Positions 7,818 to 39,360 of a stretch of 64,000 bases of DNA are shown here, piece by piece. A model generated the notes under the pieces. It was not told where the DNA came from. It ran no database searches and saw nothing but the letters and a program-made list of their open reading frames with translations. Position numbers and translations under genes: made by a program. Origin of the DNA: Akkermansia muciniphila (GTDB lineage: Bacteria; Verrucomicrobiota; Verrucomicrobiia; Verrucomicrobiales; V1-33); the NCBI GenBank assembly GCA_945861415.1, contig CAMAUV010000001.1, positions 121,194-185,193 of the forward strand. Reading direction: 5' to 3'. Each line of letters begins with the position of its first letter. Within the stretch, counting starts at the first letter, position 1.

Positions 7818-8759
7818 ATGGACACTAAAACCGTTCCGCCATCCGCCGCACCCAAGGCGCGCGGCAAGGCTCAGTATCTCGATCCGGCCATTCTCAGCAA
7901 AATCGGCTCGCTTGAAGTGGTCGCGCGGCAGTTAGTGGAGGGCGTGCGCATCGGTCAGCACAAAAGCCCGATTCGTGGTGTCAGCAGTGAGTTCAGCGCC
8001 TATCGCCAGTATACACAGGGCGACGAAACCCGACACATTGACTGGAAAGCCTACGCTCGCTCCGACCGCTATTACATCAAACTCTTCGATGCGGAGACGA
8101 ACTTCGTCTGCAACATGTTGCTCGACGCCAGCAAGTCGATGACTTACTCGTCCGGGAAGATTTCAAAGATCGAGTATGCCAAGTATCTGGCCGCCAGTCT
8201 GGCCTACTTGGTTGTAGATCAGGGGGACTCTGCGGGAGCAGCCATCTTCGACGGCAAGCTGCAGAAATACATCGAGCCGAAATGTAGCAAGCAGGTGCTG
8301 CATGACATCTCGACCGAACTTGAAAAGATCGTTCCGGAGCCGCGAACCAATGTAGGTTCCATTCTGCACGATTTCGCCCACCGCATGAAACGGCGGGGCT
8401 TCGTGATGATTTTTTCGGACCTGTTTGACAACACCGAGGAATTCATCGCCGGTCTCAACCACCTTCGCTTCGGCGGGCACAACGTGGTGCTGTTCCACGT
8501 TCTGGATCCGTATGAGATCGAGTTTCCGCTCAGCGGAATGTGGAAGTTCCTCGGGCTGGAAGGCGAGGGTGAGGTTATCACCCAGCCGTCCCGTGTGCGG
8601 GCCAACTATTTGAAGGAACTCGAGGAGTTCGTGGGTGGAATCCGCAAGGCCTGCGCCAAGGCGCAGGTGGATTACGTCCTCGTTAATACTGCCGATCCTG
8701 TCGAGCACACCATTTCCAACTATCTTCTCCAGCGCTCCGCGCTGGCAAAGTCCCGCTGA
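7818..8759 (+). CDS. DUF58 domain protein (VWA-like partner of MoxR)
   Basis: The motif YRQYTQGDETRHIDWKAYARSDRYYIKLFDAE matches the DUF58 signature as I recall it. It sits directly downstream of MoxR, as is usual. Confidence 0.88.
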   Translation: MDTKTVPPSAAPKARGKAQYLDPAILSKIGSLEVVARQLVEGVRIGQHKSPIRGVSSEFSAYRQYTQGDETRHIDWKAYARSDRYYIKLFDAETNFVCNMLLDASKSMTYSSGKISKIEYAKYLAASLAYLVVDQGDSAGAAIFDGKLQKYIEPKCSKQVLHDISTELEKIVPEPRTNVGSILHDFAHRMKRRGFVMIFSDLFDNTEEFIAGLNHLRFGGHNVVLFHVLDPYEIEFPLSGMWKFLGLEGEGEVITQPSRVRANYLKELEEFVGGIRKACAKAQVDYVLVNTADPVEHTISNYLLQRSALAKSR

Positions 8760-15218: not shown

Positions 15219-15228
15219 CAGCTGACCA

Positions 15229-16881
15229 ATGGACGCAAACCAACATAATTCCATTGAGCAGAAGCTGCGCTGGGCGTGGAGCAGGGAGCGCACTTTCATT
15301 CACATTCGCGGTGCGTTCCGCGTTTTGATCTGGCTACTCGTTCTGCTCGCCATCGGCTTCCTCATTGACTGGGGTCTCTTCACCCAAGCCGGACTACGGG
15401 CCAATCTGGGTATCCCGCTGTTAGTAGTCAGCGCCATTATCCTCTGCTGGGCCATTTGGCATGAGTGGCTGCGGCACCTCAAGCCGTTCGATCCCGTCCA
15501 CGTCTCGCTGGCAGTCGAAAAACGCCATTCCGGGATGAACTCCCTGCTCGTCTCCTACGCCCAGTTGGATCCCTCCAAAGCAGACAAGGCCACCGTCTCC
15601 TCCGAATTGATCGGGGCCATGCGGGATCAGGCTGTCACGCAGGCGCGTCCTCTGGATTTTCGGGAAATCGTTGATTTTGGCCAGATCAAGAAACTCCTCG
15701 TCGTCGGGGGTGGCTTGTTCGCAGTATTCGCCGCCCTCTCCATCCGCTGGAGCGATCACGTCGGCGTCTTCTTCCAGCGCCTTGCAGGCTCCAACGCCCG
15801 TTACCCCACACAGACGCAGATTAAGAGCGTTTCTGGAGACCTGACGGTGCGCGCTGGCGACTCTGCCATTCTCCGCACCACAGCCGGCGGCGTCCTGCCA
15901 CCAGAGGGCCGCCTTTTCACCCGGCCTGCCGGGAGTGACTCTCCGTGGAAGGAATTGCCGATGAAGACGGAAGCTGACCCCGCTAACTACGAGCGCGAGG
16001 TCAAGGGCTTGACCAGAGATCTCAGCTACTATGTGCGTGTCGGCGACGACACCAGCGAGGAGCACGTTGTTCGTGTCATCAACGCTCCACAGATTGTGGA
16101 AACGCAGGTTGCTCTCGAATTCCCCGCCTATCTGTCCAAGACCGCCGGAACGAGCGACCAGCTCAACCTCGAAGTTCCGGAGGGAACTAAATTAATTTGG
16201 AATCTGACCTGCAATCCGCCGGTGAAACGTTGCGAGGTCATCGCCGGGGAGCGCACTTTTGATGCCAAACTCGACGAGAGCGGCACTAAGCTCGGCTTTG
16301 AACTTACTGCCCAGGATGCCATCAAATACACCTTCCGCTGGACCGAGCGGGAGAAGGAGTTCAAGTATGACGACGTGCAATATGCTGTCAAAATAGTGTC
16401 GGACGCCTTGCCGGAAGTGGAACTCCTGCGCCCTTCCATGAACGGACTGGCCACCGTGAAGAAGACCCTCAAAATCACCGCCAAGGCCAGTGACGACCAC
16501 GGTCTCGAAAAAGCCTGGCTGCTCTACTCCATCAATGCCGGGAAGGAGGAGCGCGTCGAGATTCACGATTTCAAAGCAGCGGCCGGCCAGGAGTTCACCT
16601 ACGAGTGGAAGCTCAGCACAGCTATCCCCGACCTGAAACCATCGGCGCAAGTGGCCATCGCCATCGAAGTCGCCGACCTCCATCCGGACAAAGCCACCCA
16701 CAAGCGCCGCTCCTCGACACGAGTCCTCTCCATTGTCGAACCCCAAGCCTATCTCGAGTGGTACCGTGCGGAACTCGCGGCCCAGACCGATGAATTGAAA
16801 CGTTCCCGCGACTCCGAAATGGCCTCTTCTACCCAAGTCAAAGGCATTAAAGCCCAGGAAAGCGACCAAAAGCCAAAATGA
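15229..16881 (+). CDS. Three-TM membrane protein with Ig-like repeats (DUF4175-like N-terminal half, tentative)
   Basis: It has hydrophobic helices at about aa 28-50, 60-80 and 165-185. The segment PEVELLRPS...ITAKASDDHGLEKAWLLY resembles what I recall from DUF4175-type proteins. The family name is from recollection only. Confidence 0.7.
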   Translation: MDANQHNSIEQKLRWAWSRERTFIHIRGAFRVLIWLLVLLAIGFLIDWGLFTQAGLRANLGIPLLVVSAIILCWAIWHEWLRHLKPFDPVHVSLAVEKRHSGMNSLLVSYAQLDPSKADKATVSSELIGAMRDQAVTQARPLDFREIVDFGQIKKLLVVGGGLFAVFAALSIRWSDHVGVFFQRLAGSNARYPTQTQIKSVSGDLTVRAGDSAILRTTAGGVLPPEGRLFTRPAGSDSPWKELPMKTEADPANYEREVKGLTRDLSYYVRVGDDTSEEHVVRVINAPQIVETQVALEFPAYLSKTAGTSDQLNLEVPEGTKLIWNLTCNPPVKRCEVIAGERTFDAKLDESGTKLGFELTAQDAIKYTFRWTEREKEFKYDDVQYAVKIVSDALPEVELLRPSMNGLATVKKTLKITAKASDDHGLEKAWLLYSINAGKEERVEIHDFKAAAGQEFTYEWKLSTAIPDLKPSAQVAIAIEVADLHPDKATHKRRSSTRVLSIVEPQAYLEWYRAELAAQTDELKRSRDSEMASSTQVKGIKAQESDQKPK

Positions 16882-18626
16882 GATCTTCCATGAAACGATT
16901 CCATCACCATTTCCGGTTCCTGCTGATCGCATTGGCCTTGCCCGCCCTGCTGGCCGCGTCTGTCCGAGCCCAGGACCCGGCCGCGCCTGCCGCGACACCC
17001 GCAGCCGCGCCTGCAGCTGCCGCGACACCCGCACCCGTCGAGGTGAATGGCGGGGACGACATTCTGCTCACCGGCCAGCGGTTGCTCAATGAAGAGCGCC
17101 GCCAATTGGATGTCTCCCGCCGCCTGACGGGCGTCCATCGCCGTTTCGGCACACTGCTCGAAGACATTCAATCCAACGAACTCACAGAGGAAGGCGGAGC
17201 CACGACGCTCGTCACTACCGGAAACGCCATCGCCACCCTCCGCAATGGACGTGTGCCCATCGCCACAGAGCAACTCCGCCAAGCCCGGGGCGACCTCGGA
17301 AAAGCCCTGCCGCATATTGACGGTGCCTACAAGGAGATCACGGCCATCGTCGACGACCTTAACAAGATCATCGTGGGAGCCAGCACCATTCTGGCCGACG
17401 ACCGCCTGCTGAAGGAAATTCGCGAGATCATCAAGGAGGAGGAATTCCTGCGCCGCCAGACCGCCGAGTGGGGCAAAAAACTCATCATCAATCCCGAGGC
17501 CGGCAACCTTGACCAGGGGCGGGTTTCACGGGCTCAGCAGGTGGTCGTTGATCGCTACGTGCCATTTTTCGATATGCTGACCACAGCCCGTAAGCAGGCG
17601 ACGGACCCCACAACAGCTAGCCGTTTGGGCAAGGCCGAACTTGCGCTGACCGAGAGTAAACCCGAGGCCAGACTGGCCGCGGCCATTGATCAGATTACGC
17701 AGAGCCAGGCGATCGGAGCGGTGGGCGAACAAGACCAGGCCATCGAGGCCCTGCGGAAAGCGGAGAAAATTCTCGCAGAGGAAGCCGCGTCCGACCTCGT
17801 GACCGAACTGGCCCGCATTTTGGCCGCCGAAAAAGACCTCCATCAGGACACAACCCAAGCGGAAGTCGCGGCGTTCCAAGCAGAAAAGTCGTATTTCGAA
17901 GCCCGCCAGATCGGAATCGGCAAGATGCTCGAAACCGCTATCACGAATTTCGTCCCCAGCCTCGCCGGCACTTCCGCGACACCACCGCCGCCTCCCGCGC
18001 CGACATTCACCACGCCCGTTTCCGCCGCACTCACTGCATCAATTACCGAAGCGACCAAAGCAATTGCTGTGGCCGTCACCGAATTGAATGCCGGTAAACA
18101 GCCTGAGTCGATAGCCGCAGAACTCGCCGTCATCGCGGCCCTCGAGAAAGCCCTCGCACAAGCGAGAGCGGAACTTGGGACCGAGGTGCCTCCCGTCGAG
18201 GCTGGCGACATCAGCCTCGCAGATATCGGCACAGGCAGCGAAGGATCGGAATCGTTCGGGGAAGGAGCTGAATCGTTTGGCGAAGCATCTGATTCGTTCG
18301 CCGAGGGCCAAGGCGAGGGGCAGGGGCAAGGCCAAGGGCAAGGCCAAGGGCAGGGAGAGGGCGAGGGGCAGGGACAAGGGCAGGGGAAAAAAAGCGGCAG
18401 AGGACAACCCACTCCGTTCGCCGGTGACCCCAAGGATCTCGAAGAAAGCTATGCCGATGGGACCACGAAAATTGACGGGCGGGGATCAGAAGTAAAGCGC
18501 ACTCGTCAGTCGCTCGACGCACTCTCGCGGCGCCAGCGTTCCGCAGCCATCCAAAACTTCGTCCAGCAACTGCCGCCAGAATTCCGGCAGCAAGTCGCCG
18601 AATACTACGAATCTCTCGCCGAATGA
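16878..18626 (+). CDS. Secreted coiled-coil / low-complexity protein (DUF4175-like C-terminal half, tentative)
   Basis: An ATGA overlap joins it to the upstream gene. The signal peptide is MKRFHHHFRFLLIALALPALLAASVRAQ. It contains a Pro/Ala-rich tract, long helical Ala/Glu/Leu-rich regions, an acidic ESFGEG x3 repeat plus a (GQ/GE)n run, and the basic C-terminus RRQRSAAIQNFVQQLPPEFRQQVAEYYESLAE. Confidence 0.75.
   Translation: MRSSMKRFHHHFRFLLIALALPALLAASVRAQDPAAPAATPAAAPAAAATPAPVEVNGGDDILLTGQRLLNEERRQLDVSRRLTGVHRRFGTLLEDIQSNELTEEGGATTLVTTGNAIATLRNGRVPIATEQLRQARGDLGKALPHIDGAYKEITAIVDDLNKIIVGASTILADDRLLKEIREIIKEEEFLRRQTAEWGKKLIINPEAGNLDQGRVSRAQQVVVDRYVPFFDMLTTARKQATDPTTASRLGKAELALTESKPEARLAAAIDQITQSQAIGAVGEQDQAIEALRKAEKILAEEAASDLVTELARILAAEKDLHQDTTQAEVAAFQAEKSYFEARQIGIGKMLETAITNFVPSLAGTSATPPPPPAPTFTTPVSAALTASITEATKAIAVAVTELNAGKQPESIAAELAVIAALEKALAQARAELGTEVPPVEAGDISLADIGTGSEGSESFGEGAESFGEASDSFAEGQGEGQGQGQGQGQGQGEGEGQGQGQGKKSGRGQPTPFAGDPKDLEESYADGTTKIDGRGSEVKRTRQSLDALSRRQRSAAIQNFVQQLPPEFRQQVAEYYESLAE
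18303..18385 (+). repeat. Hexanucleotide (GGNSAR)n microsatellite encoding EGQGEGQGQGQGQGQGQGEGEGQGQGQG
   Basis: Read directly from the sequence. About 14 tandem 6-nt units lie inside CDS 16878..18626, preceded by three imperfect 21-24-nt repeats (18238-18302) encoding ESFGEG-like units. Confidence 0.85.
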
Positions 18627-19681
18627 AACTTTTTCGCATTACCAATATTTATGTCGCGACGTTGTTGGTCGCGACTTTCCTGACCGCCTCACTTCAACCC
18701 GCCAAGGCCCAGGACGGACCCGCCGGAGAGCAGATCGTGGGCGTGGCTCGCCTGACTCCGGAAGTCCGCGCCTCCATTACCAAGGGCCTCGACTATCTCG
18801 CCAAGGAGGGCGTGCAGAAAGCCGATGGAAGCTGGGGCAGCGGACAATATGACGTAGCGGAGACGTCCCTCGGCCTTATGGCTTTCATGCTCAAAGGCCA
18901 CGTCCCGGGCCGTGGCGGTCGCTACGGCGTGGTCATGGAAAACGCCATTACCTACCTCATCAACAAAGGCCGCAGCCAGCGGGGCTTTCTGGGCACTCCC
19001 AACAACCACGCGGGCATGTATGAGCACGGACTCGCCGTCCTCGCCCTGTCCGAAGCGTGGGGTCAAAGCAAGAACCCCGCCGTCGGCACCGCCCTGCGAG
19101 CCGGAGTGGACATTATACTTCGCGCCCAAAACTATCAGGGTGGCTGGCGTTACACCCCTGAGCCCACGGACGCCGATCTTTCCATGACCGTCATGCAACT
19201 GGTGGCGCTCAACTCTGCACGTGAGTCCGGCATCCAGGTGCCGGATACCACCATGGAAAAGGCCACCAAATACGTGATCTCTTGCCAAGACGAAAGCAGT
19301 GGAGGATTCCGCTACATGCCGGGGAACGGCGAAGTCGGCTTTGCCCGCAGCGCCGCTGGCGTTATGTCCCTCATCATGACAGGCCAGCGCAACCACAAGT
19401 CCACCCAGCGAGGGCTGGCATTCTTGAAGGCCTATCCCGACAAGAAGTTCGAAAAAGGCTACCCGCGGTTTCACTACGCCCACTACTACGCCATCCAGGC
19501 CATGTATCAGGCGGGCGAAGCGGACTTCCAGGCATGGTATCCCAAAATCGCTGCCACTGTCGTCTCCATGCAGGCCCCGGATGGAAGCTGGAGCGGCGAA
19601 GGTGGCGCAGCCTATGCCACCGGCGCCTCCATCCTCATTATCGGCGTGCCCTACCGCTTCCTGCCGATCTACCAGCGCTAG
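18623..19681 (+). CDS. Secreted prenyltransferase/squalene-oxidase-repeat (alpha/alpha-toroid) protein
   Basis: An ATGA overlap joins it to the upstream gene, and it has a signal peptide. It carries four QxxxGxW-type repeats (QKADGSWG, QNYQGGWRY, QDESSGGFRY, QAPDGSWSG), as in terpenoid-cyclase/prenyltransferase-fold proteins. Confidence 0.8.
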   Translation: MKLFRITNIYVATLLVATFLTASLQPAKAQDGPAGEQIVGVARLTPEVRASITKGLDYLAKEGVQKADGSWGSGQYDVAETSLGLMAFMLKGHVPGRGGRYGVVMENAITYLINKGRSQRGFLGTPNNHAGMYEHGLAVLALSEAWGQSKNPAVGTALRAGVDIILRAQNYQGGWRYTPEPTDADLSMTVMQLVALNSARESGIQVPDTTMEKATKYVISCQDESSGGFRYMPGNGEVGFARSAAGVMSLIMTGQRNHKSTQRGLAFLKAYPDKKFEKGYPRFHYAHYYAIQAMYQAGEADFQAWYPKIAATVVSMQAPDGSWSGEGGAAYATGASILIIGVPYRFLPIYQR

Positions 19682-19705
19682 CGCGGCTCGCCGGGCAGAT
19701 TGACT

Positions 19706-21682
19706 ATGCATTTCCGCCTTAAACTAATTCTGCTCGCCCTCCCGCTGGCGGGCCCCGCCCTCTCCTTCGCTGCGGATGCTCCTGTTCCCGCAGCCCCCGC
19801 TCCCGCCGTAGCGCCAGTGCCTGCCCCAACAGGAGTCGGCCGCATGCTTCAGCAGCTTGAATCTGGCGACTGGATCCTTCAGGCGGAGGCCCTGCATTAT
19901 TTTGCGAAACATCGCGTCATGGACGGTGCCCGGGCGACCGGTGCTCTGCTGGCCAATGAAAAGGCGGGCCCGTGGATTCGGGGACGCGCACTCGTGACGC
20001 TGTCGGCACTGGAAAACAAGGTGCCCGCGGAATTCGAGAAATGGCTCTCCCACGCCAAGCCGGAACTCCGCGCTGCCGCCGCCGAGGTGCTGGAAGTGCA
20101 GGGTGGCGATCAGGCTGCCGCGTGGCTGCAAACTCTGCTCAAGGACGCGGACGAAACCGTCCGCTATCAGGCCGCCGCGACCCACGCCCGGCGCTCGAAA
20201 GAAGCCGCATGGGCGGTGGTCGATCCGCTTACTGCCGAGGGAACCAGAAGTCCGGCCCGCCTCGCCGCAAGGGCACTCGCGTGGACTGGAACCGATGCGG
20301 CCCTGCAGCGCCTCGGCGTTCTCATGGCCAAGCCCGATCAGCTTTCGAAATGCCTTCAGGGCATTCGCGATATCCTGTCGCCCAAAATCGTTCCGCTCAT
20401 CCTCGCGGCCCGTGCGGTCCTGCCGGATGGCGAGGAGCGGCTGCATGGACTCATCCTCACCGACCTCCAGCTCCGCGACAAAAAGGATCTGGTCGCCGGG
20501 CTGGGCAAATTCATCGAGGCCGGCGGCGACCAGAACATTCGCACCGCGGCGCGAGTCATGACGCTGCTCGCGCCGGCACCCGAACTGGGCGAGCCGCTGC
20601 GCAACGCCCTGACGAAGGTCATGGACACCAAAACCATCGAGGCGGGTATGATCGCCCTCGGCATTCCCGCCATCGAGCCGGCGCGGCACCTCGAATTTTT
20701 CACGAAGCAGCTCGGACACGCCGATCCCGCCATCCGAGCCCTCGCCATCCGCTGCCTTGCGCACTGTGAGGGAGTGAATCTTTTCGAAATCCTGCATCCC
20801 AAGATGGCTGATGAGAATGTCCCGGTGGTCACTGCAGCGCTCGGTGCCCTTTTGCGCAGTCCGCCAGCCAACGCTCCGCGAGGCACTCTCGTCACCTATC
20901 TCCAAGCGCCAATCGGCAGCGCCGACAATACTGTCCGCGCCCTCGCGAATGAAGTGCTGGCCCATGCCGGAAGTTCCGACGACTACCAACCCGCCCTAGC
21001 CACCCTCTCTGGCCTGTTGAAAGGAAAAGACGATAACCTGCGTAGCTCCGCCGCGAAGGCCCTAGGAGAACTGGCCCCGTCCGGCGAAATCGGGGACTTG
21101 GTCTCCATGCAAGGCTACTTGGCCAAATGGACGATCATCGGCACCTTTCTCAACGACGACAAGAACAGCGGATTTCAGGAAGTTTTTCCGCCGGAAAAGG
21201 CCATCGATTTCGAGGCTAAATATCAGGCCAAATTCGTGTGGGCCGGAGTGCAGGGTGGAGTGGAGGGTGCCGGCGACGCCAAGCCTATCGACCGTGAGGT
21301 CGCGTGGACCAAGGTGAGCGTGGATCAGGCCGATGGCCGTCTGCTCATGGCTGCGAATCTCCCACCTCCCGGTTCGCTTTCCGTCGGTTATGCGGTCGCT
21401 GATGCGGCGTTGGAAAAGGAGCGCGAAGTCACGCTCACCATCGACGGCGACGACGGCTTCCGTGTTTGGCTCAACGGCGCGGTGATCGCGGAGCAAATGG
21501 CCACACCGGATCCCAAGACCAAGCTCACCGTAGCTAGCGTGCCCGGCCTCAAAGTGAAGCTCAAGCAGGGCTCCAACCGTTTCCTAGTCAAGTCCTCCAA
21601 CATCACCGGTCCTTGGTGGGTGCGCGTCCGGGCCACGGATGCCGACGGCAATCCCTTGGATTTACGGGCTCCCAAGCAATGA
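19706..21682 (+). CDS. Secreted HEAT-repeat protein with a C-terminal PA14/jelly-roll-like beta-sandwich
   Basis: The signal peptide is MHFRLKLILLALPLAGPALSFA. It has multiple HEAT/PBS-lyase-like repeats (for example PELRAAAAEVLEV...DADETVRYQAAATHARR). The C-terminal segment TIDGDDGFRVWLNGAVIAE...GSNRFLVKSSN resembles PA14-type sandwiches. Confidence 0.78.
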   Translation: MHFRLKLILLALPLAGPALSFAADAPVPAAPAPAVAPVPAPTGVGRMLQQLESGDWILQAEALHYFAKHRVMDGARATGALLANEKAGPWIRGRALVTLSALENKVPAEFEKWLSHAKPELRAAAAEVLEVQGGDQAAAWLQTLLKDADETVRYQAAATHARRSKEAAWAVVDPLTAEGTRSPARLAARALAWTGTDAALQRLGVLMAKPDQLSKCLQGIRDILSPKIVPLILAARAVLPDGEERLHGLILTDLQLRDKKDLVAGLGKFIEAGGDQNIRTAARVMTLLAPAPELGEPLRNALTKVMDTKTIEAGMIALGIPAIEPARHLEFFTKQLGHADPAIRALAIRCLAHCEGVNLFEILHPKMADENVPVVTAALGALLRSPPANAPRGTLVTYLQAPIGSADNTVRALANEVLAHAGSSDDYQPALATLSGLLKGKDDNLRSSAAKALGELAPSGEIGDLVSMQGYLAKWTIIGTFLNDDKNSGFQEVFPPEKAIDFEAKYQAKFVWAGVQGGVEGAGDAKPIDREVAWTKVSVDQADGRLLMAANLPPPGSLSVGYAVADAALEKEREVTLTIDGDDGFRVWLNGAVIAEQMATPDPKTKLTVASVPGLKVKLKQGSNRFLVKSSNITGPWWVRVRATDADGNPLDLRAPKQ

Positions 21683-24600
21683 GCCCGCGAGGTCCTATCC
21701 GGGTTTGTCTGGCCCTTTTTTTCGGAGCCCTCGCTGCATCGGCGGAATCGCCCCCCACTGACCGGCGCTGGGAGCAGGCACAGAAGGCTTACGCCGAGGG
21801 ATTCAGCGACGAGGGACACCACCTGCTCAAAGCCCTCGTCGCCGAGCACCCCGGCGATCTTGATCTCGCTGCGGCCTGCTACGAAAAGATCTTTGCCCAA
21901 GAATACCGCATTCTGCCAAAGCATGTGCCGTTCAAGCTTTTGGGCGAGCCCATGCACAGCCCTTGGCATGCCACCAATCACTACACAGGGGTCAATTCCA
22001 ACATGGAGATCCCGCCCGCCGTAGAACGCCTGATGGCGCTTGAGCGGCTTGGCGGAGTTTCCGCTCATACGGCCCTTCTTCGCACTGCCGGCGGAGCCTC
22101 CGTCGAAGGCGGCCTCAGCCGGCGAGCCTATCTCGAACTAAGCGACATGCTCACCCGCATGAGCCGCGAAAACCCTCGCGACCCGTTCTGGCGGATGATG
22201 GAGGCATACGCTCTCCGCGGGATGAATCGCCCCGAGGCCGGGAGGCTCATTGATGAACTCCGGCGGGAAATCGATCTCGACCATACCGACGATGGGCTGC
22301 GCAGCGACTGGATGGTGGCCGCGAGGATGTTCGATGAGGGCTTTCCCCCACGCGGCAAAAGGAAGGTTCTCCTGCCGGAGGGTAGTCCACTCCCTCTCCT
22401 GGCACCGGTCAATCCTGACGATCCCGACGACCCATGGAGCAAGGTCGCGGATCGCTCCCCAAAAGATATTCCCGGCGAGGTGGACCGGCTCATCGTGCTT
22501 GCTTCCGGTTCTAGGGATTTACTGATGTGGGCGGATACGGATAGCGGCGGCGTTCATCCCGCCCGCGCCCTTGATTACCACCTGCTCAGCAAACCTGCCC
22601 CCGAACTCGACCCCCTGCGTAAGATTCAGGAAAAAACGTTCTCCCCCGAAGCTCAGTCCGCCGCCCGCACCGAGGCCGACATCCTCAAAGTAACCCGCCG
22701 CTTCGCATGGGCGCGCCCCGCTCAGGTGCTTCTGCTGAAAATCGCCAGCGAGGCGCTCTGGGACGGGCGTTTCGAATCTGCATGGCGCAGCTTTCAGGAA
22801 GTCCTTCTCCACACCGCTGACCCCGCGCTCCGCGAAGCTGCCCAAGTCGGTCTCTGGACCGCCCATGGACTCTCCGGCGGAGCAGCGGAAGTGCTCGCGC
22901 AACCCGCCGCCTTCGAGCCTGAGAAGACCTACCCGTGGATGGGTCGTCCGACCAAGGGCTCGGCAATTCGCGCTATCCTTCAGGCTATGGTTCGGCCCGC
23001 ACCGACGGTCGTCGCTTCTTCGCTCAAGGATGTCCGCCCGCACGTCCTGAACCTCCCGCCGGTGACTCCGTGGGTGATGAATACCCACGCGGCTGGGGAC
23101 TTGACCCTCGATCTTCAGGTGGTCGATAAAAAGGTCCTGGTCACCGGGCGCAACCTTCTCGCCGCCTACGACGCTGCCAAACCCGATGCCCCGTTGTGGG
23201 CTCATGTGCAGCATTTCAGCTCCCCGCCCAATAATAACCGGTCACCCTACCCCGGCTACTTCCGCGGGCTCATTGAGGACGGGACACTTTTTACGCGCTG
23301 GGGCATGTCTGAAATGCCGAGCGGTCTGGCCGCTTTCAGCCTTGCCGCCGGCGATTCGTTGTGGGCGGCCCTCGACGCGATACCCAAAGGTTTCAGCGGG
23401 GAAAATCTCCGACAAATAGGCATCATGCCTATCTGCGATCCAGTCCGTGCCGACGGCAGATTGTTCTACCTGCAAATGAGCACTGTCAGCCCGGCGGTGA
23501 ACGGAGGCACTCCCAACGTCAGCCTCGTTTGCTTCGACCCCGGCGCCGTTCAGCCCCGTTGGGCGACTACGATCTTGGAGCCTATCGCGGTGGAGCGCCA
23601 GCACTTCCAGCACAACTACAACACATTCGCCTACGGCAACGCGGTCGCCGTCCATCGTGGCGCGGTCTACAGCTGCACGAATGCTGGTTACATCATCCGC
23701 TCCGATGTGCGCGACGGCCGCGTCGAATGGACCCACAAGTATCCCATTATTGGCGGCGATAGTCAGTCTTTCGGCAGCGCCCCTATCATCGCCGGCAACA
23801 ATGTCATCTGCCTGACCCGCAATGGCGAGCGCGTCTTCGCCCTCGACCAACGCACGGGTTTTGTTGCATGGGAGAATGTCATGATCCGCACCTTCGAGGT
23901 GCTAGGCCTCTGGCAGGACACCCTCGTGGTGCGTGGGCCTACCCACATCGCCGGGCTCGATGTCGCTACCGGAAACGGCCGGTGGATCCGGAATCTAACG
24001 GGGCGCACCCTCAACCGCGGCCAGCTCCTCGCCGATTCCGTCTATATCGGACAGTCCGACGCCCTGCAGCGGCTCGACGCCCGCACCGGCGAGCTGCTCG
24101 AAAGCCGGCCATGGGCGCTCCAGCCCGAACGCGCCCTCAGTTTCATCATCTCCGGCCAGGACCTTTACATCGCCACGGATCGGCCCGCCGCCGACCCCCG
24201 CCAAAATGTGGGCCAGCTTCTCAGCCCGGAAGTGGCTTCTTCCGCCCAGCCGCTCAAGCTACCCCTCAAGCGCGCATGGTCGCTCCTGCGCCCCGATGCC
24301 TCGCTCATGCTCCCGCCCGCCGGAGTCAACTCCGGCACCGCCTATGTCTTTGGCGACGGCCTCATTGAGTGTCTCGAAGTCAACGAACGCGGTGGCATCC
24401 GCTGGCGCCGCTTTCTTGATCTCAACACCAACCAACTCACACGCCACTTCGTCGGCCAGACTGGCGAGATGCTCGTGCTCATGGAAAAGGGCGGTTCATA
24501 CGAGAAGCCCCCGCGTGCCCTCGCCCTCGACACCAAAACCGGCGCGACGATTTGGGAGACGACCATCCCTCCCTGGCACGACCCGCCACCCTCCGTGTGC

Positions 24601-25449
24601 GGCTTCCTGATGATTTTCGCCAGTCACGCCCATCACCTTGGAGGCGGAGCGACCACCTTCGACCTCACCACAGGAAAGCAACTTTGGCGACGCTTCATTC
24701 GCAGCCCCGCCCCTCCGATAGCCTTGGGGGACAGCTCCCGTTTGCAGCTTCTCACCAGCCTTTGGACGCCGAGACCCACGCGTGTGACCCTCAACGCGCA
24801 AACCGGCCACACTATCCCGGATGCCCCGGATAAACCTGCATGGCCGCCCCTGCTTCACAACGTCCACAACAAACAGGGAGCATTCGTCTATCTCCTCCCT
24901 CCGGTGGGAGAGTCGGCGATTTTCCGGGAACAGGCTCACGTTGTGGACCATGTCCCCGGGTCCGGCGCTCCCTACTACCTCATCCGGCCGCGCGACGGTA
25001 ATGACAAGACCACCATGGGCGTCTATCGCGCCGACGACCCGTCCTACTTTTTCAAACTCACGAGCGATAACGTCATGTTCGAGGGCGACTACGCCATCAC
25101 CATCCAGGGAAAAATCGAGATCGCCGACCTCAAAGCCAAACGCCTGCTGCCTCTCCCTGCGGACGAAAAGGCACCCATCCACCAGCAGGGACTTCTCTGC
25201 CGCATCGGCCCCGATCGTTTACTCAAAATCATCGACAAGGGCGGCGGGAAGAATCTCGTCTTCATCATAGATCTCCCAAGCGGGACCGTGACCGAGGGGG
25301 AACTCGAAAATCCCGGTCAGACCGAGCAAATCGCCACGTCACGCTACCTCAACCTCAATCCCCATAACAGGCCGTTTCTTCCGACGTTCGACCGCGTCTT
25401 TCTGGCCTACGACAACACCAACATTACCGCGTGGGTCGCGGCCCTCTAG
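21679..25449 (+). CDS. Giant exported protein, paralogue 1: N-terminal helical (TPR-like) region plus PQQ/BamB-like beta-propeller repeats
   Basis: The ATG at 21679 overlaps the upstream stop (ATGA) and gives the signal peptide MSPRGPIRVCLALFFGALAASA. It has repeated 'ALDQRTGFVAWEN', 'GLDVATGNGRWIRN' and 'LDARTGELLESRPW' motifs typical of PQQ-like propeller blades. I read the supplied ORF start at 21613 as an artefactual extension. Confidence 0.82.
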   Translation: MSPRGPIRVCLALFFGALAASAESPPTDRRWEQAQKAYAEGFSDEGHHLLKALVAEHPGDLDLAAACYEKIFAQEYRILPKHVPFKLLGEPMHSPWHATNHYTGVNSNMEIPPAVERLMALERLGGVSAHTALLRTAGGASVEGGLSRRAYLELSDMLTRMSRENPRDPFWRMMEAYALRGMNRPEAGRLIDELRREIDLDHTDDGLRSDWMVAARMFDEGFPPRGKRKVLLPEGSPLPLLAPVNPDDPDDPWSKVADRSPKDIPGEVDRLIVLASGSRDLLMWADTDSGGVHPARALDYHLLSKPAPELDPLRKIQEKTFSPEAQSAARTEADILKVTRRFAWARPAQVLLLKIASEALWDGRFESAWRSFQEVLLHTADPALREAAQVGLWTAHGLSGGAAEVLAQPAAFEPEKTYPWMGRPTKGSAIRAILQAMVRPAPTVVASSLKDVRPHVLNLPPVTPWVMNTHAAGDLTLDLQVVDKKVLVTGRNLLAAYDAAKPDAPLWAHVQHFSSPPNNNRSPYPGYFRGLIEDGTLFTRWGMSEMPSGLAAFSLAAGDSLWAALDAIPKGFSGENLRQIGIMPICDPVRADGRLFYLQMSTVSPAVNGGTPNVSLVCFDPGAVQPRWATTILEPIAVERQHFQHNYNTFAYGNAVAVHRGAVYSCTNAGYIIRSDVRDGRVEWTHKYPIIGGDSQSFGSAPIIAGNNVICLTRNGERVFALDQRTGFVAWENVMIRTFEVLGLWQDTLVVRGPTHIAGLDVATGNGRWIRNLTGRTLNRGQLLADSVYIGQSDALQRLDARTGELLESRPWALQPERALSFIISGQDLYIATDRPAADPRQNVGQLLSPEVASSAQPLKLPLKRAWSLLRPDASLMLPPAGVNSGTAYVFGDGLIECLEVNERGGIRWRRFLDLNTNQLTRHFVGQTGEMLVLMEKGGSYEKPPRALALDTKTGATIWETTIPPWHDPPPSVCGFLMIFASHAHHLGGGATTFDLTTGKQLWRRFIRSPAPPIALGDSSRLQLLTSLWTPRPTRVTLNAQTGHTIPDAPDKPAWPPLLHNVHNKQGAFVYLLPPVGESAIFREQAHVVDHVPGSGAPYYLIRPRDGNDKTTMGVYRADDPSYFFKLTSDNVMFEGDYAITIQGKIEIADLKAKRLLPLPADEKAPIHQQGLLCRIGPDRLLKIIDKGGGKNLVFIIDLPSGTVTEGELENPGQTEQIATSRYLNLNPHNRPFLPTFDRVFLAYDNTNITAWVAAL

Positions 25450-25452
25450 CAG

Positions 25453-28400
25453 ATGAAAAGTCCGATCCTCCTCACTCTCGCCCTGTTCCTTGGAGCCCTC
25501 CCTGCGCCAGCGAATCCACCCACTGACGACGCCCGCTGGGCCAACGCGCTCAAGGCTTACGGGAAAGGTCAGCGCGAGCAGGGCCACCGCTTGCTCGCCG
25601 CCCTCACCGCCGAGCATCCAGGCGATCTCGATCTCGCCGCCGCCTGCTACGGGAAAATCCTCGCCAGCGAAAACCTCCCGTCCGTGAAGACCCCGGTGCT
25701 CACCGACCGTCCCTGGATCACCCTTGGCACGGAACGCCTGCTGGCCCTCGAACGCCTCGGTGCCCACTCCGCAAACACATCCATCTTCCGTTCCGCCGCC
25801 GCCGCTGCGAGTCAGCACGAGGTTGCAAAAAACCGCTACCTCGACGCCCATGAAACGATCTCCCGTCTGCGCTCCGAGAATGACCACGATCTTTTCTGGC
25901 GCATGATCGAAGTCCGCATCCTCCGCAGCATGGGCCTGCCCGAAGCCGAAGCACGCGTCTCCGAACTCAGGCGGGACTATGATCCTGACCATTCCGATCC
26001 TGACAAACGCGCTGATTGGGAATGGATCGCCACAGAAATCACCCCGCCCGGTGGTCCTCCTCTGGTCGGTCGTCCCGCCGGGGCCCGGCCACCCCTGCGC
26101 CTACCCGTTACCGTCCCGGTCGCGCCCACGGGCAGCCCGATCAGTCTGCTGGCACCCGAAGATCCCGAAGGCCGCTGGCGGGTCATCACCGAACCGTCCC
26201 CCAAAGGAGGCGTTGGCGCCGTGGATCGCTTCCTCGGCTACGCTTACGCTGCCGCTGAAGGGGTGCCGTGGAGCGGTGGTCGCGGTCTGCTCGATTCCAG
26301 CCGGGCGATTGACCTGCACCTCCTCAGTAAACCCGCCGCCGAACTCGAAGCCCTGCGCCAGGAGCAGGAAAAGCAATTCTCCCGCGAAGCCCAGACCGCA
26401 GCCCGCAGCGAAGCGGGCATCCTCAAAGCAAGCCGCCGCTTCCCATGGTCGCGGTCGGCCCAGGCGCTTCTCCTGAAACTCGCCGGCGAGGCGCTTTGGG
26501 ACGGACGCTCCGAGTCCGCATGGCGCAGCTTTCAGGAAGTGCTCGTCCATACCACCGACCCTGCACTCCGCGAGGCCGCGCAGACGGGCCTCTGGACCGC
26601 TCAGGCCCTCTCCGGCGGAGCTGCGGAAGTGCTCGCGCAACCCGCCGCTTTCGAGCCTGGCAAGACCTATCAATGGATGGGGCGTCAGGCCAAAGGTGAG
26701 GAAATTCGCGCCGCCCTGCAGGCCACAGTCCGGCCCGCGACTTCGGTCGCTGCGCCTGCGCTTTCGGCCGTCCGTCCGCGTGTGCTCCAACTCCCGCCAG
26801 TGGCACCGTGGACCATGAGTGTGGGCTTCAGCGTCGATCTCCAGGTGGTTGGGAATAGAGTCGTGGCCAGTGCCCGAAACGTCATCGCCGCCTACGACGC
26901 CGCCAATCCCGGCGCTCCGCTGTGGACCCATTCGCAACAACGTTCCACCGCCAACTCCCACTGGCCATGCTACTACCGCAGTCTCATTGAAGAAAGCACG
27001 ATTTTCACGCGCTGGAGCGTCACCGACTTGCCCAGCGGTCTGGCCGCCTTTGACCTCGCCAGCGGTGATCCGTTGTGGACTGCGCTGAGTGAAATCCCCC
27101 GGCCCAAACGTTTCAGCCCTGTAAAAAAGCAACCGGTGCGCTTCTCCGTGCCGGCGGGCGATCCGATCCGCGCCGATGGCCAGCTCTTCTACCTGCAATG
27201 GGACTCCATCCATGAGCTCCACTCCAAGCAAGGCACGAACGTGAACCTCGTGTGCTTCGATCCTGGCACCGGCGAGCCCCGCTGGACGACCACAGTCAAC
27301 GATCACCGGTTTGCAGGAGATTTCCGCGGCCCCACAGCCGCCATCTACGGAAACTCCGTCACCGCGCATCGCGGAGCGGTCTATAGCTGCACGAACACCG
27401 GGCAGATTGTTCGTTCGGACGTTCGTGACGGTCGCATCGAATGGTCCCATAACTATCGCCACCACCCCACCAACGCGGAGTTTCTCGGCACCGCCCCCAT
27501 CGTCGCCGGCAGCAATGTGATCTGCCTTCCCCGCGATTCGGGAATCGTCATCGCTCTCGACCAGCGCACCGGCTTTCCCGTCTGGGAAAATCCCCTCATC
27601 CGCGCCGCCGAGGCGCTGGGCATCTGGCAGGACACCCTCGTGCTGCGCGGTGTGGCCACCCTCGCCGGGCTCGATCTCGCCACAGGAAAGACCCGGTGGT
27701 CCCGGAATCTGACCGGGCGCACTCTCGACCGCTCGCAGCTCATCGCAGACTCCATCTACCTCGGCGAGGCCGACTCCCTCCTACGGCTCGACGCCCGCAC
27801 CGGCGAATTGCTCGAAACCCGCCCGTGGGCGCTCCAGTCCGAACGCGCCCTCACGTTCACCCTCGCCGGCCAAGACCTCTACGTCGTCTCAGACCGCCCC
27901 GCCGACGACCCCCGGCAGAAAACCGGCCAACCTCTCGGCCCAGAACTCGCCTCGTCACCGCTCCCGTTCAAGCTGCCCATGCAGCGCGCATGGTCACTCT
28001 CGCGCCCTGAGGCCACCCTCGCCGTCCCGCCTGCCGGAGTAAGCCCCGGCACTGCTTACGTCATCAGCGATGGCCTCATCGAGTGCCTTGATGTCGTCAA
28101 ACGCGGTGCCATCCGCTGGCGACGATTCCTCAATGCCAGCGGCCCCGCAGTATTCTTCGCCGGCGACACACTCATTCTGCGGGAAAAGGAAGTCCCACAT
28201 CTCCCGTCCGCCCGCGTCCTCGCCATCGATTCAAAGACTGGAGTGACACTCTGGGAAGCACCCGTGCCCATCAACCACCAGCACGTCTTTCACTTCGGCA
28301 CCCGCCTCCTTTTCCACGACGGACGTGAAAAACTCGTCGCCCTCGACCTTGCAACTGGCCAGCGGGCATGGCAGACCACTTTGATCACGGCCCATACTCA

Positions 28401-29640
28401 AAATCCCTACTGGGACGGCACTAACCTGCATCTTTTCCGCGCCCCCGCCACGGGCAATCTCGAGCACTTTACCATCGACCCCATTACTGGCGACGCGATA
28501 GCGCACCGGGATGTTGAGGCGAGGCCGCCGGGCGAAACCCCCACGGCCATCCGCGAACTCGAAGACGGCACCTACGAAATTCGCTTCGCACCCGCCACGG
28601 CCCGGTATTTCCGCGTCACCACGCTCTCCAGTTCCGGCGGGGTGGGGGACTTTGCCTCCGCTGCCGAGTTTTACCTGCTCGGTCCGGATGGCCAGCGCCT
28701 GCCGCGCGACCAGTGGACCGTAACCGCCGCTCACGAACCCAACGCCGGCCTCAGAGCCAAGCCCCGCAATACCATTGATGGCAATCCGGATTCATGGTGG
28801 CACTCCCAGTGGACCAATGGCCAGACGCCGCACCCGCACTACTTCCTTATCGACCTCGGCACCGCCCAGAACATTGCCGGATTTCAATACCTGCCGGCAA
28901 AAATTATCAACAACAACGGGCTGATCGCCGAATTCGAACTCCACGTGAGCCAAGACAAAACGGCGTGGGGCGCGCCAGTCAGCAAAGGAAGTTTTTCCGA
29001 AAACATCAGAGTCAGAACTCTCGAGACCATGGCCTCTGTCCCTTCCTTTTTCGAGGTGCGCCGCCAGCACCGCCAAGTCCCGTCCGTCTATCGCTACGGC
29101 CTCACCGGCGACGCCGTTCCCGTGCAGGGAATCGGCAGTATCCTGCGCGTCGAAGGGCCTTACGCTCTCCTCTCCACCCGCGATAAACTCGACGCCCCGG
29201 AAACCCTCACGGTGCGCCGCGCCGACGACCCAGCCTACGTCTTCCCGCTCCCGATCAAACACGACCGGCATGGCCAGCTCCTCTTCGTCGGCGACTACGC
29301 CATCACCCATCAGGGCAAACTCGAAATCGTCGACTTGAAATCCAAGCGCCAGGTAGCCGTCCCCGGGGACGAAAAAGCCCCCATCCACCAGGGAGGTTTC
29401 CTCTGCCGCCTCGGCGCGGATCGTTTGCTCAAAATCGTCAACCATGAGGGGAAGCAACTCGCCTTCACCATCGACCTCCAGAGCGGCACCGTGAGCGATG
29501 GCGTCCTGGCAAACCAGACCGAACCAATCAACGAAAACCGCTACGCCCGACCCGGCGGCCAAAACCTCGCATTGACCTTCGACCAAACCTTCCTCGTCTG
29601 CGACAACTCCGCCATCAGCGCATGGGTCGCCGCACCATAG
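25453..29640 (+). CDS. Giant exported protein, paralogue 2: same architecture as paralogue 1 plus an inserted F5/8 type C (discoidin)-like module
   Basis: The signal peptide is MKSPILLTLALFLGALPAPA. It is collinear with paralogue 1 from the N-terminus (PPTDxRW..AEHPGDLDLAAACY) to the C-terminus (I(S/T)AWVAA). The insert TIDGNPDSWWHSQW...HYFLIDLG..IAGFQYLPA...IAEFELHVSQDKTAWG fits the discoidin consensus. Confidence 0.85.
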   Translation: MKSPILLTLALFLGALPAPANPPTDDARWANALKAYGKGQREQGHRLLAALTAEHPGDLDLAAACYGKILASENLPSVKTPVLTDRPWITLGTERLLALERLGAHSANTSIFRSAAAAASQHEVAKNRYLDAHETISRLRSENDHDLFWRMIEVRILRSMGLPEAEARVSELRRDYDPDHSDPDKRADWEWIATEITPPGGPPLVGRPAGARPPLRLPVTVPVAPTGSPISLLAPEDPEGRWRVITEPSPKGGVGAVDRFLGYAYAAAEGVPWSGGRGLLDSSRAIDLHLLSKPAAELEALRQEQEKQFSREAQTAARSEAGILKASRRFPWSRSAQALLLKLAGEALWDGRSESAWRSFQEVLVHTTDPALREAAQTGLWTAQALSGGAAEVLAQPAAFEPGKTYQWMGRQAKGEEIRAALQATVRPATSVAAPALSAVRPRVLQLPPVAPWTMSVGFSVDLQVVGNRVVASARNVIAAYDAANPGAPLWTHSQQRSTANSHWPCYYRSLIEESTIFTRWSVTDLPSGLAAFDLASGDPLWTALSEIPRPKRFSPVKKQPVRFSVPAGDPIRADGQLFYLQWDSIHELHSKQGTNVNLVCFDPGTGEPRWTTTVNDHRFAGDFRGPTAAIYGNSVTAHRGAVYSCTNTGQIVRSDVRDGRIEWSHNYRHHPTNAEFLGTAPIVAGSNVICLPRDSGIVIALDQRTGFPVWENPLIRAAEALGIWQDTLVLRGVATLAGLDLATGKTRWSRNLTGRTLDRSQLIADSIYLGEADSLLRLDARTGELLETRPWALQSERALTFTLAGQDLYVVSDRPADDPRQKTGQPLGPELASSPLPFKLPMQRAWSLSRPEATLAVPPAGVSPGTAYVISDGLIECLDVVKRGAIRWRRFLNASGPAVFFAGDTLILREKEVPHLPSARVLAIDSKTGVTLWEAPVPINHQHVFHFGTRLLFHDGREKLVALDLATGQRAWQTTLITAHTQNPYWDGTNLHLFRAPATGNLEHFTIDPITGDAIAHRDVEARPPGETPTAIRELEDGTYEIRFAPATARYFRVTTLSSSGGVGDFASAAEFYLLGPDGQRLPRDQWTVTAAHEPNAGLRAKPRNTIDGNPDSWWHSQWTNGQTPHPHYFLIDLGTAQNIAGFQYLPAKIINNNGLIAEFELHVSQDKTAWGAPVSKGSFSENIRVRTLETMASVPSFFEVRRQHRQVPSVYRYGLTGDAVPVQGIGSILRVEGPYALLSTRDKLDAPETLTVRRADDPAYVFPLPIKHDRHGQLLFVGDYAITHQGKLEIVDLKSKRQVAVPGDEKAPIHQGGFLCRLGADRLLKIVNHEGKQLAFTIDLQSGTVSDGVLANQTEPINENRYARPGGQNLALTFDQTFLVCDNSAISAWVAAP

Positions 29641-29718
29641 TGGTGTTGCCACATCAGTCGCCACCAACTCAATTCCCTCCAACTCTCCATCAATCAAACC
29701 GGATCATCATCAGCCACC

Positions 29719-32502: not shown

Positions 32503-32535
32503 CCAGCTTATCTCATCGTCGCTCTGCGCCCGATC

Positions 32536-33567: not shown

Positions 33568-33617
33568 CAGACACGCCACGGCGGGACACCGAAGCAGGTT
33601 GGGGAGACCTTACCACC

Positions 33618-34406: not shown

Positions 34407-34534
34407 CGAACATCAGACCGATGCAAGGCGTCAGCTTGGTGACTGTTTTCCTCGGCCGCTTGCGGGTAAATGGCAGGGCGGATCTCGTATTGAACGTTAC
34501 TTTCTCCCAGCCACATCCAACATAATAGCATTGA

Positions 34535-35416: not shown

Positions 35417-35589
35417 ATTCCTATCTTCGAATGTCGAGGCTGTGCCCTAACTGCCGTGTGCCTGACTCGCTGAAATGAGATGAGCATGAGAACGAACCCC
35501 CCGACTGAACTCAAGGCTCTCCAGCCCACGAAGCCCGGCAGCGGGTCTCGGCTAGTCGTCGCAGGCGAACTGGAGCAGTAGTTGAACGA

Positions 35590-38402: not shown

Positions 38403-38425
38403 CCACTATAAAATCATTCCAACTC

Positions 38426-39349: not shown

Positions 39350-39360
39350 ACATATTTGAA

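Follow-up and report, generated by a model that had tools for sequence, protein, structure and literature searches.

A tandem pair of giant solenoid–double-propeller proteins at the end of a Bat-like operon in a verrucomicrobial genome

The window analysed here, the whole of a 64,000-nucleotide stretch of DNA from Akkermansia muciniphila (assembly GCA_945861415.1, contig CAMAUV010000001.1, positions 121,194 to 185,193), carries two giant genes in tandem on the + strand, on which their domains and the other genes of the operon described below also lie. We call them gene A (21679..25449, 1256 aa), the A-type paralogue without a discoidin domain, and gene B (25453..29640, 1395 aa), the B-type paralogue, which has this domain and represents the ancestral form. 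Gene A was delimited from its open reading frame, the alignment with B and its orthologues: its start is the ATG at 21679, which overlaps the stop of the upstream HEAT-repeat gene (ATGA), and this codon was taken rather than the TTG at 21613, where the mechanical reading frame begins, because the orthologues begin at the same ATG. Gene B begins 3 nt past the A stop. By BLASTP the two products are collinear, with 540/1063 identical residues (51%, E=0) and 87/164 (53%) in the C-terminal part, a similarity far above chance. Both translations contain the motifs singled out in a preliminary description of this DNA, namely PPTD..RW..A.KAY..G...GH.LL.AL.AEHPGDLDLAAACY at the N-terminus, HRGAVYSCTN.G.I.RSDVRDGR.EW internally and I(T/S)AWVAA at the extreme C-terminus, and the adjacent, collinear giant reading frames of 1256 and 1395 aa which it reported are indeed present. 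It had also counted 132/160 identical nucleotides in a conserved stretch at 22783..22942; the near-identity stands and the count is 133/160 (against 26521-26680). This stretch encodes the most conserved part of the N-terminal domain, aa 369-421 (WRSFQEVL.HT.DPALREAAQ.G.WTA..LSGGAAEVLAQPAAFEP.KTY.WMG).

The tandem pair is not an assembly artefact, since it is spanned by a separate 20-kb contig that comes from the metagenome of a different lake and covers 19000-31000 with 6 differences, and since contig depth is even across both copies in four runs. Orthologues of A are 68-76% identical to A, and those of B 74-82% identical to B. The length gap of 139 aa between the two proteins is explained by the discoidin domain: B aa ~1017-1235 hold a domain of the F5/8-type-C kind, and A has only a linker of ~50 aa there. 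The GC skew becomes strongly negative towards the end of A and stays so throughout B (24001-30000; -0.14 to -0.22), against -0.05 to -0.10 elsewhere in the operon to which they belong; codon or amino-acid usage is a possible cause.

Each protein opens with a putative Sec-type signal peptide, as the preliminary description had proposed: aa 1-23 in A (21679..21747; MSPRGPIRVCLALFFGALAASA, followed by ES) and aa 1-20 in B (25453..25512; MKSPILLTLALFLGALPAPA, followed by NP). Both N-termini have a short basic stretch, a hydrophobic core of 12-14 residues and an AxA-type site (ASA before ES in A, APA before NP in B), and neither has the lipobox cysteine at +1. A helical domain follows, spanning aa 24-437 in A (21748..22989) and, with boundaries set by alignment to A, aa ~21-425 in B (25513..26727); A has in addition a predicted disordered insert of its own at aa ~77-109 (21907..22005). 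The AlphaFold model of the A domain, built from an alignment of 27 sequences that included distant relatives, is all-alpha, with ~20 helices arranged as hairpins and two small beta-hairpins (pLDDT 79.2). Its best fold matches in Foldseek are superhelices of tetratricopeptide repeats (TPRs), namely LGN/Pins, consensus TPR, PEX5 and subunits of the anaphase-promoting complex, at E 8e-4 to 1e-2 and TM scores of 0.2-0.25, that is, at the level of generic TPR likeness only. A profile of the domain found no match among PDB sequences even at E=10, and the Pfam and NCBIfam scans gave none in this domain of A or B. On the modelled fold, “TPR-like solenoid” is thus a fair label for these ~415 aa, with no specific homologue that can be named; the helical, TPR-like third foreseen from the sequence holds up in kind, with a length of ~415 rather than ~430 aa.

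The remainder of each protein is a body of two tandem beta-propellers. In A, propeller 1 is placed at aa ~476-831 (23104..24171; 30 predicted strands), where the invariant blade motif RSDVRDGR lies, and propeller 2 at aa ~875-1256 (24301..25446; 31 predicted strands), with a low-confidence linker at aa ~1047-1097 inside it, at the very site of the B discoidin domain. In B, alignment to A places propeller 1 approximately at aa ~460-811 (26830..27885), and alignment together with Pfam places propeller 2 at aa ~855-1395 (28015..29637), split by the discoidin domain. Pfam PQQ_2, the BamB type of the pyrroloquinoline quinone (PQQ) repeat, matches A at E=2e-20 and B at E=3e-36. The AlphaFold model of A (aa 57-1256; pLDDT 59.7, pTM 0.49, the propeller 1 part mostly at 60-87) shows two beta-rich regions parted by a low-confidence linker, each of which would have roughly 7-8 blades, and in Foldseek the closest folds are the EMC1 double propeller, BamB and tandem WD40 proteins. 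Structure prediction, which the preliminary description had suggested for the blades and the helical repeat, therefore gives two propeller-like regions and a TPR-like solenoid, and the PQQ/BamB-type multi-propeller body is supported by Pfam, AlphaFold and Foldseek alike.

The insert of B relative to A (aa 1017-1235; 28501..29157) contains a domain of the F5/8-type-C kind, resembling family 32 of the carbohydrate-binding modules (CBM32), with its Pfam F5_F8_type_C core at aa 1093-1184 (28729..29004). It scores 49.2 bits with PF00754 (cut-off 28.2; E=7e-13), and so belongs to the CBM32/F5/8C family by sequence. The family profile matches discoidin-type domains in PDB chains of beta-galactosidase (6eon), galactose oxidase and a bacterial sialidase at E 1e-16 to 1e-21; NagH and NagJ are also among the matches of the B domain, the overall range being E 1e-10 to 1e-21.

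The age of the pair was read from relatives; individual loci carry L numbers. In a neighbour-joining tree of 22 copies taken from genome and metagenome loci, all A-type genes form one clade and the B-type genes its sister clade. This reciprocal monophyly spans at least five species-level freshwater metagenome-assembled genomes (MAGs), so the duplication must be older than the divergence of these lineages. The single-copy, discoidin-bearing genes of marine MAGs of the Roseibacillus type fall outside both clades; since these outgroup genes carry the domain, the B form is ancestral and A has lost its discoidin domain.

Such an age is at odds with the suggestion in the preliminary description that the near-identical stretches reflect a fairly recent duplication, or a pair kept alike by ongoing gene conversion. 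The A/B nucleotide identity within a genome equals that across genomes in every 50-codon window, and in the conserved stretch itself it is 0.80-0.84 within the window genome and 0.78-0.83 across genomes. Identity at four-fold sites over aa 291-430 is 0.56, within the 0.41-0.68 of the other regions, base composition alone giving 0.39. Synonymous divergence (dS, by NG86), calculated along the length as had been proposed, is 0.94 between A and B overall, near saturation, in comparison with 0.33-0.58 between orthologues; even in the two best-conserved regions it only falls to 0.61-0.68, still above the 0.34-0.54 of orthologues there. A Sawyer-type run test found for the window pair a longest run of 6 matching variable sites (p=0.80), with no conversion tract in the window genome like those of two relatives described next. 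The 83%-identical stretch in the window genome is therefore a matter of constraint, not of recent homogenisation.

Some observations do speak for exchange between the copies, at other times or in other genomes. Over aa 291-440 and 641-840, the proteins A and B lie at only 0.58-0.71 of their distance to the outgroup (~0.9-1.0 in most other regions), and dS is also lower there, which possibly reflects ancient conversion before speciation, or else uneven divergence after the duplication. In locus L004 (A 819-4589, B 4593-8816), a run of 21 matching variable sites over ~50 nt (p<0.0005), equivalent to 22816-22866 of the window, has A-type bases in the B gene, and in L008 a run of 16 such sites (p<0.0005) lies at the equivalent of 23181-23210; control runs across genomes are of 7-10 sites. 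Short tracts of A/B gene conversion are thus present in these relatives, and recombination between copies has also left one-copy and three-copy loci (see below). For the pair in the window, however, recent origin or continuing conversion is refuted by the tree, the identity windows, dS and the run test together, and we consider it a very improbable explanation of the likeness. Gene A has a ratio of nonsynonymous to synonymous divergence (dN/dS) of 0.36-0.42 and gene B one of 0.25-0.30, so that purifying selection, of no great strength, acts on both. From these ratios (0.25-0.42 taken together) and the RNA contigs matching them, both copies look functional.

Copy number at the locus differs among relatives. 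The closest relative, L011, whose operon proteins are 81-92% identical to those of the window, has one giant gene, which is A-type over ~14 codons at its start (MSARSH..., in overlap with the HEAT stop) and B-type from there on (L011:9960-10110). Two other loci, L009 and L090, have three copies, A, A' and B (L009:8500-8700; L090:5880-14992), the extra A-type gene having 5' codons of the B type (MK.PIL...) and an intergenic spacer like that from A to B. The fusions in L011 and in L009/L090 are the reciprocal products expected of unequal crossing-over within a conserved stretch of ~15-20 nt, which encodes the signal peptide's hydrophobic core. In L090, the interval from HEAT to the first giant (L090:5901-6095) contains an A-type start remnant (ATGAGTGCGCGAGG...), followed by ~190 nt of non-coding sequence with a perfect 18-nt inverted repeat (GGCGACATTCCTGTCGCC ... 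GGCGACAGGAATGTCGCC), perhaps a small insertion, perhaps an element with a structure. Farther away, L078 (13202-20949) has a tandem pair of its own, with copies 65% identical to each other and ~29% to A/B, one of which shares 82% identity with the single-copy giant of L082; this pair is an independent duplication in a distant lineage. A second giant copy occurs in 3/31 loci with enough sequence past the first giant, and the window, L004, L009 and L090 are multi-copy loci beyond those. Arrays of one, two and three copies thus exist, and as to single versus duplicated genes, whose distribution the preliminary description had wished to see determined, the single copy is the norm. The A/B pair goes back to an old and unremarkable tandem duplication, one copy of which lost a domain, at a locus where copy number changes by unequal crossing-over; it is nothing surprising in kind, the folds being common and duplication ordinary, and its value is as a clean small example of the dynamics of a tandem array, with an old duplication, the loss of a domain and between 1 and 3 copies.

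Genes A and B are the last two of eleven tightly packed genes (6684-29640), of which moxR is the first. The gap after moxR is 51 nt, and from the DUF58 gene to B the gaps are -4 to +21 nt. The MoxR AAA+ ATPase (6684..7766; AAA_3 E=5e-61, Walker A GVPGLAKT) is followed by a cytoplasmic DUF58 protein (7818..8759, from the domain scan), a secreted protein of 622 aa without a family match (8759..10627, with a signal peptide; here unk622) and a protein with a VWA (von Willebrand factor A) domain (10635..12839), which combines a double transmembrane anchor (BatA-N/TIGR02226, in Pfam and NCBIfam) with an intact metal-ion-dependent adhesion site (MIDAS; DASYS), and which matches BatA-N, VWA_2, CARDB and DUF7408/DUF4350. 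The domain scan then gives a membrane protein that carries a GATase1-like domain (PF07090) and, near its N-terminus, two transmembrane helices (12861..15218), and a DUF4175-like membrane protein with 2-3 transmembrane segments (15229..16881). A second secreted protein of 582 aa (16878..18626, with a signal peptide; here unk582) has no family match; for it and unk622, Pfam gave no match at E up to 1. The last two before the giants are a secreted alpha/alpha-toroid with QW repeats of the prenyltransferase/squalene-cyclase type (18623..19681, from profile matches) and a HEAT-repeat protein with a signal peptide (19706..21682; its reading frame is listed from the TTG at 19700). The toroid is the best conserved member of the module that it forms with the HEAT and giant proteins, and the one likeness that its profile finds in PDB is to the QW repeats of squalene-hopene cyclase. 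All products encoded behind DUF58 have, by eye and sequence, either a signal-peptide-like N-terminus (A, B, HEAT, toroid and both secreted proteins without a family) or transmembrane anchors (the BatA/VWA, GATase1-like and DUF4175-like proteins). A scan of 19-33 kb for promoters and terminators found none convincing after B or between the genes, the tRNA and Rfam scans of the window gave no matches, and PADLOC, run on ten proteins of the operon, returned only a weak, generic HEAT-repeat match. Our literature search found no description of this operon type in bacteria of the Planctomycetes-Verrucomicrobia-Chlamydiae (PVC) group.

Across the loci gathered by a scan of metagenome contigs with a profile of the toroid and from species-representative genomes, a HEAT gene comes next after the toroid gene in 58/64, and a giant-family gene next after HEAT in 40 of the 42 informative ones, down to giants of 26-31% identity and in marine (TARA), freshwater and sediment samples. 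The giant is thus fixed, almost always, as the last gene of a toroid-HEAT-giant module of Bat-like operons in PVC bacteria. In the two exceptions (L048:1367-11336 and L072:640-4317), a 349-aa reading frame follows HEAT and no giant-family gene is detectable downstream. Another four loci (L024:678-5672, L083:10001-14908, L067 and L069) have the giant directly after the toroid with no HEAT gene between; in L024 and L083 this giant is of 1323 aa and aligns only to A aa ~250-1007, its N-terminal part being different. The longer order, unk622, BatA/VWA, GATase1-like, DUF4175-like, unk582, toroid, HEAT, giant, is conserved and also recurs in an Opitutae MAG; in Verrucomicrobiales and Opitutae the module is usually attached to such a Bat-like operon. 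A Lentisphaerae MAG (L091:10001-17917) has the trio, with a giant of 1624 aa, behind riboflavin biosynthesis genes and with no MoxR or BatA upstream, so toroid, HEAT and giant form the tighter unit.

The trio might work alone, its position behind MoxR and BatA reflecting shared regulation only and no common complex. The Lentisphaerae arrangement and the existence of solitary giants fit this. Against it speaks the order from unk622 to the giant, which Opitutae as well as lineages from the sea, freshwater and sediment have kept, with genes that overlap or nearly abut; on the whole we think it unlikely.

A word-index search for homologues retrieved 18 relatives only, an A-type group of 1252-1257 aa and a B-type group of 1385-1412 aa with the discoidin domain. 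An exhaustive search with a profile of the N-terminal domain retrieved 207 clusters (at 50% identity) at E<=1e-3, 152 of them at E<=1e-10; most of the best 150 matches are proteins of 1200-2500 aa, and the family members scanned have PQQ_2 propellers after the N-terminal domain, one with a Laminin_G_3 domain in place of discoidin. Database names within the family are all automatic (“PQQ-binding-like beta-propeller”, “BamB”, “hypothetical”), which, together with the N-terminal domain that has no Pfam, NCBIfam or PDB match, bears out the earlier remark that no characterised protein has this layout. What is new here is modest: an uncharacterised solenoid-double-propeller-lectin family with a previously unmodelled N-terminal domain, which defines a PVC family without Pfam model or structure. 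The conserved module is of more interest than the duplication. It is kept across Verrucomicrobiales, Opitutae and Lentisphaerae, and so offers specific candidates for periplasmic partners that can be put to the test.

Features linked to glycans keep turning up with the giant, namely the Laminin_G_3 variant, neighbouring sulfatase-F5/8C fusions and a Pel9A-like neighbour. A sulfatase-F5/8C fusion gene directly follows the giant in 18 marine loci, all of the Roseibacillus-type clade (e.g., L003:7483-9507, L013, L031-L036, L040-L046 and L061), and in L003 its start overlaps the giant stop; the gene is absent from the freshwater clade that carries the A/B duplication. In L091 the giant is followed by a beta-helix gene resembling Pel9A and chondroitinase B.

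Another reading is that the giants are themselves enzymes that act upon a glycan in the periplasm or outside the cell, either propeller lyases or hydrolases or PQQ sugar dehydrogenases, with the CBM32 domain for targeting and the toroid as a second carbohydrate-active subunit. In its favour are the sulfatase, the beta-helix lyase-like protein, a glycoside hydrolase and the ThuA/GSDH-type proteins among the neighbours, the CBM32 or Laminin_G modules of family members, the invariant and highly charged RSDVRDGR motif, and weak profile matches, to PQQ and PQQ-dehydrogenase models in the giants and to Pec_lyase in some toroid homologues. The matches of A and B to models of PQQ enzymes are, however, fragmentary and sub-threshold: with the quinoprotein model TIGR03075, whose cut-off is 480 bits, they score 19.9 and 21.5, with no full-length match, and PF01011 gives 15.3 bits for A (cut-off 26.7) and 30.4 bits for B on a fragment only; nor is there an alignment to a quinoprotein active site that could be relied on. 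A PQQ dehydrogenase is rejected on the TIGR03075 score. No CAZy-type catalytic family was matched in A or B, the best matches of the propellers in sequence and fold are the non-catalytic BamB and EMC1, and two propellers with a 415-aa solenoid are a typical scaffold layout. An enzymatic role for the giants seems to us improbable.

Downstream of B, the window continues with a run of genes for secreted proteins of sugar oxidation and deacetylation (29719-40322), comprising a ThuA-DUF7133-cytochrome c protein (927 aa), a SASA-type acetylesterase, a GDSL hydrolase, two more ThuA-like proteins, a GSDH-PKD-CBM6-cytochrome c protein (873 aa) and a BD-FAE esterase. The ThuA-DUF7133-cytochrome c gene also follows the B-type gene in L011. 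At the other end, a reading frame of at least 818 aa running off the window start (3-2459) has a weak match to di-haem cytochrome c peroxidases (CCP_MauG) and C-terminal ankyrin repeats, an unusual pairing in one bacterial protein.

Transcription of the operon was looked for in assembled contigs of four lake metatranscriptomes, which cover the operon and parts of both A and B. Depth of the RNA contigs, a weak measure of expression in which DNA carry-over is possible, reaches ~2-9 at 13-20 kb, where the membrane-protein genes lie, but only ~0-1.5 in A, and B is covered patchily; the fall along 13000-29640 could reflect polarity or internal 3' ends. One contig (25342-25517) crosses the A stop and the B start. 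RNA contigs matching A and B thus exist, and little more can be said of them. Co-transcription of A with the HEAT gene we infer from their 4-nt overlap.

Taken together, architecture and gene order suggest, with about an even chance of our being right, that A and B are exported, non-catalytic periplasmic subunits of a Bat-like envelope system, serving as scaffolds or in glycan recognition. From their N-termini, the most likely location of both is the periplasm. In outline, MoxR and DUF58 in the cytoplasm, together with the VWA and GATase1-like proteins anchored in the membrane, would build or remodel a complex in the envelope, with the toroid, the HEAT protein and the solenoid-propeller proteins as its periplasmic part. 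The giant may provide large surfaces for docking between proteins, as the propellers of BamB and EMC1 do, and the CBM32 domain of B may attach to, or recognise, a galactose-type glycan. The conserved core of A and B is made up of the C-terminal half of the N-terminal domain and propeller 1; the first half of the solenoid and propeller 2 have diverged in A, and the lectin module is lost, so A probably docks to the same core as B and binds a different partner or ligand.

Several points weigh against this assignment to a periplasmic, non-catalytic subunit of the operon. The signal peptides were judged by eye, and the full-body model of A is of moderate quality, which leaves blade counts and the geometry between domains uncertain. 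Coverage of A and B by transcripts, as judged from assembled contigs, is thin, and no RNA contig crosses the HEAT/A junction in the four metatranscriptomes. The charged RSDVRDGR motif, being invariant, could be an active site. In its gene neighbourhood, too, the family is not entirely faithful: the Lentisphaerae trio indicates that the MoxR link may be looser than that to the toroid and HEAT genes, three closer copies (L002, L018 and L021) are solitary, and P0060 and P0067, distant relatives that share the N-terminal domain and of which one is from a Phycisphaerae MAG, have no adjacent MoxR, toroid or HEAT gene, so the giant family can evidently work outside the operon. Finally, no cultured carrier and no experimental study of the family came up among the database and literature matches, all named matches being MAG or metagenome sequences.

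One could go further than an envelope subunit and see in the trio, usually driven by MoxR, DUF58 and BatA-VWA, an undescribed PVC-wide periplasmic machine, a coat or scaffold which would organise the enlarged periplasm or outer envelope, or capture polysaccharide, with the giant as an exchangeable, lectin-bearing specificity subunit and its copy number tuned by unequal crossing-over. This bolder proposal is speculative, and we think it unlikely.

Among known systems, the nearest in sequence and fold to the propellers of A and B is BamB (YfgL), an eight-bladed PQQ-like propeller lipoprotein of ~390 aa in the beta-barrel assembly machinery (BAM) complex. It is periplasmic and serves as a non-catalytic docking platform; it differs in having one propeller and a lipid anchor, whereas the giants lack a lipobox and carry a second propeller as well as the 415-aa solenoid. 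The automatic “BamB” names and this fold match could suggest that the giants are BamB-like factors for the assembly of outer-membrane proteins, and the presence of a propeller and an alpha-solenoid in a PVC bacterium could suggest instead a protein of the membrane-coat kind, a link which the preliminary description had raised as speculative. Scores with the BamB equivalog are far too low for the first (TIGR03300, 43.5 and 56.8 bits against 285; NF008351, 29.7 and 41 against 423), and the proteins are 3-4 times the length of BamB. As for the second, membrane-coat proteins (Santarella-Mellwig et al. 2010) are likewise large PVC proteins that combine a propeller with a stacked-helix solenoid, but in them the beta-propeller is N-terminal and the stacked-helix (SPAH) domain comes after it, at the C-terminus (PMC2799638). 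In A and B the solenoid comes first (aa 24-437 in A), there are two propellers, and a signal peptide precedes them, so the coat link fails on the defining order of domains. Both memberships were rejected, BamB on scores and lipobox and the coat on domain order, and either identity for the giants is most improbable.

In the ternary conflict (defence) system of Kaur, Burroughs, Iyer and Aravind (2020), the third component has TPRs and a beta-propeller and is encoded beside a MoxR-vWA pair (PMC7159879). That the operon is such a MoxR-vWA-beta-propeller system, with the giant as third component, gains some colour from the reported occurrence of such systems in Verrucomicrobia and Planctomycetes (PMC7159879), from the window MoxR passing the Pfam bpMoxR cut-off (40 bits), from the varying copy number of the giant and from a dN/dS of 0.3-0.4, above what we would expect of typical bacterial proteins. 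In the described system, MoxR is of the bpMoxR type with a P-loop that is often GxxxTAKS, and in the third component a globular domain that varies and a membrane span stand N-terminally, ahead of the TPRs and the propeller (PMC7159879). The window MoxR instead scores 205 bits with AAA_3, against those 40 with bpMoxR, and its P-loop is GVPGLAKT. The fusion of vWA and propeller is absent, the window VWA protein (10635-12839) giving no propeller match and having a BatA-N anchor with CARDB and GATase-like parts. A and B do have a TPR-like domain and propellers, but they begin with a putative cleavable signal peptide, and their N-terminal domain is conserved rather than hypervariable; the PADLOC result was no better than generic. 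With no vWA-propeller fusion, a classical MoxR and a canonical P-loop, membership in the ternary system was rejected, and a conflict role of this kind is very unlikely.

The lumenal domain of EMC1, from the ER membrane protein complex, is the top Foldseek match, over ~750 aligned columns; in it, too, a pair of PQQ-like propellers stands in tandem, and they face away from the cytosol in a membrane complex. EMC1 is, however, eukaryotic, membrane-anchored and without an N-terminal solenoid or CBM, and since its TM scores are low (0.11-0.15), the likeness is one of layout only. The CBM32 domain of B resembles modules of galactose oxidase, Micromonospora sialidase and Clostridium NagH/NagJ; unlike these, it is inserted within a propeller of an apparently non-catalytic protein.

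The system that the locus resembles most as an operon is that of the Bat (Bacteroides aerotolerance) genes, which encode MoxR, DUF58, BatA and BatB (membrane VWA proteins), BatC and BatE (TPR, SH3) and BatD. The window has the core of a Bat-type operon: MoxR (AAA_3), DUF58 and a BatA-N-anchored VWA protein with MIDAS are encoded together with gaps of -1 to +51 nt, helical-repeat genes lie distally, and the products are exported or membrane-bound. It differs in what follows, since the Pfam and NCBIfam scans found no match of the BatB, BatC, BatD or BatE type among the nine downstream proteins, and GATase1-like, DUF4175-like, two secreted proteins without a family, toroid, HEAT and giant proteins are found instead. 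The VWA domain of a Borrelia BatA-like protein faces the periplasm (PMC5700661); effects of Bat proteins on oxidative stress are reported from Riemerella (PMC11834572), and no such effect from Leptospira (PMC3557215). MoxR-VWA operons of the Bat type are widespread, and the version found in PVC bacteria encodes an unusually rich exported part.

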